Source: Escherichia coli
GTDB lineage: Bacteria > Pseudomonadota > Gammaproteobacteria > Enterobacterales > Enterobacteriaceae
Length of the DNA stretch: 632 nucleotides
NCBI RefSeq assembly: GCF_003334785.1
Contig: NZ_QOWV01000080.1
Direction: 5' to 3' (one strand)
Shown here one piece after another: positions 1 through 632 of this stretch; positions within the stretch are counted from its first letter, which is position 1; every line of letters starts with the position of its first letter. The notes beneath the pieces are model-generated. The model searched no databases. It was not told the origin of the DNA and worked only from the letters and a program-made list of their open reading frames with translations. A program made the position numbers and the translations under genes.

Positions 1-3
1 GAA

Positions 4-93
4 TGGCCCTCCAACCGTGTTGACGAACTCCTGCCATGGAACGTAGTACTCACCAATAAATAAGCGTCAATACGGTGCTCCGTTGACGCTTAC
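4..93. repeat. Left arm of a long imperfect inverted-repeat pair bracketing the IS30 fragment
   Basis: Position p pairs with position 636-p of the right flank: 59/90 complementary by hand count, no gaps. Perfect blocks include 67-76 (tcaatacggt) with 560-569 (accgtattga), 87-93 (cgcttac) with 543-549 (gtaagcg), 4-8 with 628-632, 13-17 with 619-623, 37-41 with 595-599. Confidence 0.8.
61..92. repeat. Hairpin-forming inverted repeat inside the left arm: perfect 10-bp stem, 12-nt loop
   Basis: 61-70 taagcgtcaa is the exact reverse complement of 83-92 ttgacgctta; the loop is 71-82 tacggtgctccg. On the minus strand the stem is followed by TTTATT (complement of 55-60). The corresponding region of the right arm (544-575) does not form an equivalent hairpin. 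Confidence 0.7.
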
Positions 94-542
94 AGATGAA
101 ATGGTCTCCAGAGCAAATATCAGGATGGTTAAGGCGAACAAAACCACGTCAAAAAACGCTGCGAATATCACCTGAGACAATTTATAAAACGCTGTACTTT
201 CGTAGCCGTGAAGCGCTACACCACCTGAATATACAGCATCTGCGACGGTCGCATAGCCTTCGCCATGGCAGGCGTCATACCCGCAAAGGCGAAAGAGGTA
301 CGATTAACATAGTGAACGGAACACCAATTCACGAACGTTCCCGAAATATCGATAACAGACGCTCTCTGGGGCATTGGGAGGGCGATTTAGTCTCAGGTAC
401 AAAAAACTCTCATATAGCCACACTTGTAGACCGAAAATCACGTTATACGATCATCCTTAGACTCAGGGGCAAAGATTCTGTCTCAGTAAATCAGGCTCTT
501 ACCGACAAATTCCTGAGTTTACCGTCAGAACTCAGAAAATCA
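94..542 (+). mobile_element. Internal fragment of an IS30-family insertion sequence (transposase gene body only; neither IS terminus present)
   Basis: Translation of 96-542 matches, from my memory of the protein, the central part of E. coli IS30 transposase InsI (MKWSPEQISGWLRRTKPRQKTLRISPETIYKTLYF...GHWEGDLVSGTKNSHIATLVDRKSRYTIILRLRGKDSVSVNQALTDKFLSLPSELRKS). Upstream of 94 the frame hits TGA at 84-86 and the expected ...LVLEKLE is absent; downstream of 542 the expected ...LTWDRGMELA is replaced by unrelated sequence. No IS30 terminal inverted repeat is recognisable. Boundaries are approximate to within a few bases. Confidence 0.85.
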
Positions 543-569
543 GTAAGCGACTCGTCAGAACCGTATTGA
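96..569 (+). pseudogene. insI: Truncated IS30 transposase ORF (InsI-like): 149 internal codons fused to 8 flank-encoded codons (VSDSSEPY) and a TGA stop
   Basis: Supplied ORF track 96-569 (157 aa). Contains the HWEGD motif typical of the first catalytic Asp region of IS30-family DDE transposases but lacks the N-terminal helix-turn-helix region and the distal catalytic residues. The ATG at 96 is an internal Met of the native protein; the 15 bases upstream (ttgacgcttacag) carry no GGAG-like Shine-Dalgarno; in-frame TGA at 84-86. Confidence 0.8.
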
Positions 570-632
570 TATTTACTGAGAGCTCAGATCAACTTTCCAG
601 GGCAACAGATCGCGTACCCGGTTTGCCGGCCA
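543..632. repeat. Right arm of the same imperfect inverted-repeat pair; begins at the first base after the IS30 homology
   Basis: Reverse complement of 543-632 aligns ungapped to 4-93 at about 66 percent identity; the strongest blocks are 543-549 and 560-569. The arm reaches the window edge and may continue beyond it. Confidence 0.8.

Follow-up and report, generated by a model that had tools for sequence, protein, structure and literature searches.

We found that the chimeric open reading frame (ORF) at positions 96 to 569 of a 632-base stretch of Escherichia coli DNA (here called the window, meaning the whole stretch that was analysed) is very probably a non-functional pseudogene remnant, left over from an IS30 copy that was cut on both sides by insertion sequences of the IS66 family. 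As read from its sequence, the window contains parts of three nested insertion sequences, with a piece of IS30 between two IS66-family ends. Because both flanks are IS66-family termini, the ORF is an ordinary by-product of insertion sequences nested in one another, and in itself it is nothing new.

Anatomy of the window and its reading frame

We determined the boundaries of the three pieces by comparing each with known elements (Table 1). Bases 1–93 showed 97–100% identity to ISEc47/ISEc23 transposase ends in thousands of E. coli records and also aligned with the ISEc47 end of E2348/69. Bases 94–542 were 100% identical to canonical IS30 as found in thousands of E. coli chromosomes and in enterobacterial plasmids; the element's coordinates were mapped on an intact IS30 copy (locus L005). 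Bases 540–632 were 100% identical to ISCro1 right ends, with the GTAAGCG terminus at 543–549. Both breakpoints are sharp, at 93/94 and 542/543, and coincide exactly with the IS66-family termini ...CGCTTAC and GTAAGCG.... Independent records agreed on these positions, left-arm matches ending at 93 and right-arm matches beginning at 542/543, and the boundaries were independently confirmed by phage-borne copies of the arms, which broke off at these positions too, 93 and 542/543. Each arm carries the GTAAGCG terminal repeat together with a tnpC 3′ end, the combination by which we recognize an IS66-family end, and the two TnpC C-termini lie on the expected strands. Once one of the two was reverse-complemented, the left and right arms aligned as diverged homologues, which explains why a preliminary description of this DNA, made from the letters alone, spoke of arms. 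Going beyond that description, we assign both flanks by these sequence features to IS66-family termini, of the ISEc47/ISEc23 type on the left and of ISCro1 on the right. The far ends of both elements, with their target duplications, lie outside the window.

Table 1 Features of the window and of related loci (positions refer to the window unless a locus is named).
Feature	Position	Strand	Details
tnpC 3′ end, IS66 family, ISEc47/ISEc23 type	1–63	+	Last 20 codons and TAA at 61–63; protein ends ...EWPSNRVDELLPWNVVLTNK, then stop (by translation)
Right-end terminal inverted repeat, ISEc47-type element	61–93	+	...CGCTTAC at 87–93; hairpin; in-frame TGA at 84–86
Internal IS30 fragment, nt 481–929 of the 1,221-bp element	94–542	+	Transposase codons 141–289; neither IS30 end
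Chimeric ORF, 157 codons and TGA	96–569	+	ATG is the internal Met141 codon of the IS30 transposase
Eight tail codons, VSDSSEPY, and TGA	543–569	+	Read out of the ISCro1 terminal inverted repeat
ISCro1 right end, inverted relative to the left arm	543–632	−	tnpC stop at 573–575; C-terminal codons ...WPANRVRDLLPWKVDLSSQ, then stop, over 632–576
Other in-frame start candidate, GTG 312–314 with AAGAGG 293–298	293–314	+	Anti-Shine–Dalgarno pairing −7.1 kcal/mol
Recurrent nt 481 junction	Window 93/94; L003 60–100 and 2490–2520; L006 1815–1845; L004 2490–2520		
IS30 insertion flanks	L003 3255–3290; L001 6655–6690; L004 3245–3280		GTAGCCTTTTTTAATAT and GTTGCTTTTTTTAATAT

The ORF listing gives a protein of 157 amino acids that starts at ATG and ends in ...LRKSVSDSSEPY before the stop. 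Its first 149 residues are 100% identical to residues 141–289 of the 383-residue IS30 transposase, and the two sequences diverge at residue 290, where IS30 continues with LTWDRG and the ORF with VSDSSEPY. Direct reading placed TGA 84–86, ATG 96–98 and TGA 567–569 in one common frame, and the ATG lies two bases inside the IS30 fragment. The preliminary description had the frame closed on its 5′ side by the first of these stops and passing from IS30 into the right arm, where VSDSSEPY precedes the last; both points were borne out, by direct reading and, for the passage into the arm, also by alignment to the IS30 transposase. An ORF of 157 codons was reached in 7 of 2,000 shuffles of the window. 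The frame is thus longer than expected by chance, because it was inherited from a real IS30 gene, and a tail of eight codons up to the first stop is nothing unusual. The predicted product is basic, as had been proposed (pI 11.3; 32 lysine and arginine against 14 aspartate and glutamate residues), and at 18.4 kDa it is slightly larger than the roughly 17 kDa first estimated.

We next compared the domains of the ORF product with those of the intact protein, in which Pfam recognizes an HTH_38 domain at residues 58–98, a weaker HTH_38 copy at 6–41 and an rve domain at 229–320. Both HTH_38 copies were absent from the ORF, which begins at residue 141, and a marginal tail of HTH_32 was left (E = 0.025). 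The rve match covered model positions 3–73 of 102, compared with 3–102 in the intact protein. IS30-family transposases are known to have a DD(33)E spacing; on this spacing and on the motifs HWEGD (D237), LTWDRG (D293) and TNENTNG (E327) we base our assignment of the catalytic residues. The ORF retains D237, whereas D293 and E327 lie past the break at residue 289, four residues before D293. With the profile for IS30 family transposases (NCBIfam NF033563) the product scored 112.7 bits against a cut-off of 80, across profile positions 53–193 of 267 only. Similarity to a functional IS30 transposase is therefore above the family cut-off, whereas the HTH domains, the full DDE triad and the flanking IS30 inverted repeats are missing, IS66-family termini having replaced both ends of IS30. 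These results uphold the earlier statement that DNA-binding and full catalytic domains are lacking. The RNase H-like core of the predicted product is incomplete and, since the HTH region and two of the three catalytic residues are missing, the protein would be able neither to bind IS30 ends nor to catalyse transposition, including strand transfer. Sequence searches detected no solved structure of an IS30 transposase relative.

Origin and expression of the arrangement

The arrangement could have arisen through two events, one joining an ISEc47/ISEc23-type right end to IS30 nt 481 and the other joining an inverted ISCro1 right end to nt 929. For each junction there are two possible routes, a simple insertion that duplicated 8 bp of the target and an IS66-mediated adjacent deletion. 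Simple insertions would have duplicated, inside IS30, AGATGAAA on the left (ending at nt 488) and GAAAATCA on the right (starting at nt 922), and if both junctions arose in this way the rest of a complete IS30 would be found beyond the far ends of the two elements. Alternatively, the left junction may have been produced by intramolecular transposition of an ISEc47 neighbour into IS30 nt 481; in E2348/69, an ISEc47 right end lies about 40 bp from the left end of IS30. What remained would be the middle 449 bp of IS30, with a transposase frame that would start at the internal Met141 and run eight codons into the ISCro1 terminal repeat, up to the first stop. Other genomes contained IS30 copies into which an IS66-family element had simply inserted, with a duplication of 8 bp. 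ISCro1 has been described as an IS66-family element, 2,699 bp long, that generates duplications of 8 bp and drives plasmids to recombine with one another (PMC12115866).

The whole window was found in none of 5,426 complete E. coli genomes, 72,556 plasmids and 50,697 phage records. Coverage of the window by E. coli records was 86% at best, and in the records that reached 86% the ISEc47 end adjoins another part of IS30. Exact-match scans of genome, metagenome and viral contig collections detected neither the left nor the right junction, no E. coli genome carried the right junction (542/543), and the exact 157-residue protein was not on record. As the junctions and the exact protein were found in none of the collections searched, we see no hint of selection for the product. 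The arrangement is young, since each of its three pieces matches an active element at 100% identity, and its lack of decay is uninformative either way.

We considered whether the ORF exists in any cell at all, since a short contig could have been misjoined from three multi-copy repeats. The source comprises just 632 bases, all of them high-copy insertion sequence DNA, and the full arrangement and the right junction were absent from every collection searched, as such an assembly chimera would predict. However, misassemblies join inside shared repeats, and no sequence is shared at the joins observed here. At each join, the break coincides exactly with the outermost base of an IS66-family terminus, a pattern that we read as the mark of transposition and not of a random deletion or a misassembly. 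In addition, IS66-family elements have really inserted at the left junction point, IS30 nt 481, and have done so repeatedly, as eight finished genomes show. We consider a misjoined contig very unlikely. A composite transposon, with the IS30 piece as a passive passenger between the ISEc47-type element and ISCro1, seems unlikely, if less so than a misjoin. It would agree with the inverted placement of two IS66-family elements whose right ends face the fragment. However, the two are different family members with diverged ends, their outer ends lie beyond the window, and no collection held a second copy of the arrangement. A composite transposon would in any case be compatible with the pseudogene reading and would leave the interpretation of the ORF unchanged.

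We then searched the window for signals that could direct expression of the ORF; the promoter and initiation-signal tests were carried out at the level of consensus sequences only. Scans of both strands of the window found neither a sigma-70-like promoter nor an intrinsic terminator. Pairing of the 16S rRNA 3′ end with the 20 nt before ATG 96 reached +0.7 kcal/mol at best, a value that 95% of all the window's 20-nt stretches equal or better, in agreement with the earlier view that the ATG is not preceded by a Shine–Dalgarno sequence. The start codon lies 2 nt 3′ of the strong terminal-repeat hairpin at 61–93, for which an inverted-repeat search gave stems at 61–69/85–93 and 72–75/80–83; the predicted RNA fold of positions 50–125 had a minimum free energy of −20.5 kcal/mol (z = −2.9). 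This hairpin extends as far as the final base of the ISEc47-type element and includes it; the equivalent ISCro1 end (543–575, minus strand) showed no such fold (z = +1.0). The alternative start at GTG 312 has its AAGAGG motif 13 nt upstream, a long spacing, and would yield a product of 85 residues here; it is common to every IS30 copy rather than specific to the fragment, and we found no evidence of its use.

Several other candidates were rejected. The 61–93 hairpin does not qualify as an intrinsic terminator of tnpC, as it has no U-tract and the terminator scan was empty. A fusion of TnpC to the ORF product can be dismissed on the reading frames, since tnpC stops at 61–63 in another frame and TGA 84–86 intervenes. 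The only known RNA suggested by Rfam for the window was mir-1200, at 20.7 bits against a gathering score of 71 (E = 0.11), which is chance level.

The tnpC gene of the left element lies on the same strand as the ORF. Its stop is 32 nt upstream and is not followed by a terminator-like site, which makes it plausible that read-through RNA covers the fragment. The fragment itself would have no promoter or ribosome-binding site of its own, and any RNA would presumably be read-through from the two convergent tnpC genes, with that of ISCro1 giving antisense RNA over the fragment. In bacteria, re-initiation 32 nt past a stop codon, beyond a hairpin and without a Shine–Dalgarno sequence, would be inefficient at best; at ATG 96 it may occur at a low level. 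We infer that the ORF is not expressed. The preliminary description had called it most likely untranslated, and the lack of a promoter-like site and of a Shine–Dalgarno sequence supports that judgement. A short-read expression signal over 94–542 would be uninterpretable, because every IS30 copy in the cell contains exactly this sequence. A promoter for an antisense RNA of IS30 was described by Arini et al. 1997, according to its citation in PMC8450116.

Low-level translation, for instance by re-initiation after the tnpC stop, would give an 18-kDa basic core that might act as a dominant-negative inhibitor of IS30, comparable to the Inh protein of Tn5. If this were true, one insertion sequence family would have made an inhibitor of another by inserting into it, and the fragment would poison IS30 transpososomes. 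The same-strand tnpC gene that ends just upstream without a terminator-like site would be in keeping with such translation, about 70% of the rve core, with D237, is retained in the fragment, and truncated inhibitory transposases are known in other families (Tn5 Inh and IS1 InsA). Against this, the start codon has no Shine–Dalgarno sequence and abuts a stable hairpin, and convergent transcription of the ISCro1 tnpC would produce antisense RNA. The RNase H-like core is cut four residues before the second catalytic aspartate, which makes a stable fold doubtful; every recognizable DNA-binding HTH domain is missing; and the ORF is unique to this sequence, on record nowhere else. Nothing found in our analysis supports the inhibitor idea, which we regard as extremely improbable, the least credible of the readings considered here.

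Insertion sequences that are nested in one another routinely give rise to chimeric ORFs at their joints, which annotation pipelines already mark as partial pseudogenes. What follows in practice is negative: ORF 96–569 should not be annotated as a gene. The one mildly useful by-product of the analysis is a recurrent junction between IS66-family elements and IS30, which may serve as a guide for a study of IS66-family target selection.

A recurrent IS66-family junction in IS30

Three different IS66-family elements, in two orientations, join IS30 at the identical nucleotide, nt 481 (Table 1). The element is of the ISEc47 type in the window and of another type in HL15/SF10; in TUM10008 and five further genomes it is an ISCro1-like element that has decayed. 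The elements of HL15/SF10 and of the TUM10008 group have the orientation opposite to that in the window, and they carry the 8-bp duplication AGATGAAA on their flanks. The flanking sequences of the IS30 copies in HL15 and TUM10008 differ, which indicates that these are separate IS30 copies. It is improbable that three family members would have met by chance at one site in a 1.2-kb target. The nt 481 site coincides with the left arm of an IS30 palindrome, CTGGAGAT-GAAATG-GTCTCCAG (fold z = −2.8). The right junction of the window adjoins the right arm of a weaker repeat, CGTCAG...CTGACG, which is clearest in the pB4.H1.17 copy and of which the L005 copy is a variant.

A fourth junction between an IS66-family element and IS30 was found in plasmid pB4.H1.17.c11 (CP146553.1; locus L007, 3090–3110), formed by an ISEc23/47-type right end. 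It lies 118 bp upstream of the junction in the window (...CGCTTAC joined to AGACGCTA / ...CGCTTAC joined to AGACGCTATTAC), and the sequence joined there starts with AGA, like the target in the window. Within the plasmid collection, no junction of the recurrent kind was detected. At the right junction of the window, the trinucleotide TCA just outside GTAAGCG (540–549) was also present in all of the 20 best of roughly 3,300 matches to the ISCro1 arm. This probably reflects ranking bias, as about 1 in 64 of the roughly 3,300 records would be expected to carry it by chance.

The IS30 copies of HL15/E2348-69 and of TUM10008 sit at corresponding positions of two different, distantly similar transposase genes that are annotated as partial (flanks in Table 1), which fits the known hot-spot targeting of IS30. 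As for the IS66-family elements, we tentatively suggest that IS30 nt 481–488, within the palindrome, could be a preferred target of several IS66-family transposases, a reading that we rate as possible while stopping short of calling it probable. A hot spot is more plausible than an inhibitor as a reading of this DNA and, if true, would to our knowledge provide the first handle on target choice in the IS66 family.

Comparison with known systems

The closest known protein is InsI, the IS30 transposase of E. coli, with which the ORF shares residues 141–289 and to whose element, at nt 481–929, the DNA of the fragment is identical throughout. Compared with InsI, the ORF is without residues 1–140, the HTH part, and without residues 290–383, which hold D293, E327 and the C-terminus, and eight foreign codons have been added. 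Compared with intact IS30, the fragment is without both inverted repeats and the IS30 promoter region.

The same type of nesting is seen in other partial IS30 pseudogenes cut by IS66-family elements, in HL15/SF10, in TUM10008 and the five genomes grouped with it, in E2348/69 and in plasmid pB4.H1.17.c11. The NCBI annotation treats the related loci as incomplete pseudogenes ('incomplete; partial in the middle of a contig'). The eight genomes and the window agree in the nucleotide at which IS30 is joined to an IS66-family terminus (...TTAC joined to AGATGAAATGG). The eight genomes have the left end of a different IS66-family element at this site, and IS30 is intact to its 3′ end. The window instead has an ISEc47-type right end at the site, together with a second cut, by ISCro1 at nt 929, that was seen nowhere else.

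The likeness to Tn5 Inh lies in the kind of product, in that the ORF would also encode an N-terminally shortened transposase without DNA-end binding. However, Tn5 Inh has its own translation start, a complete catalytic core and a dimerization region, and it is encoded by every copy of its element, whereas the ORF would share none of these properties. The consensus-level tests gave the ORF no promoter or initiation signals of its own, and in the collections searched it is neither conserved nor recurrent across copies or lineages, as an inhibitor of the Tn5 Inh type would be.
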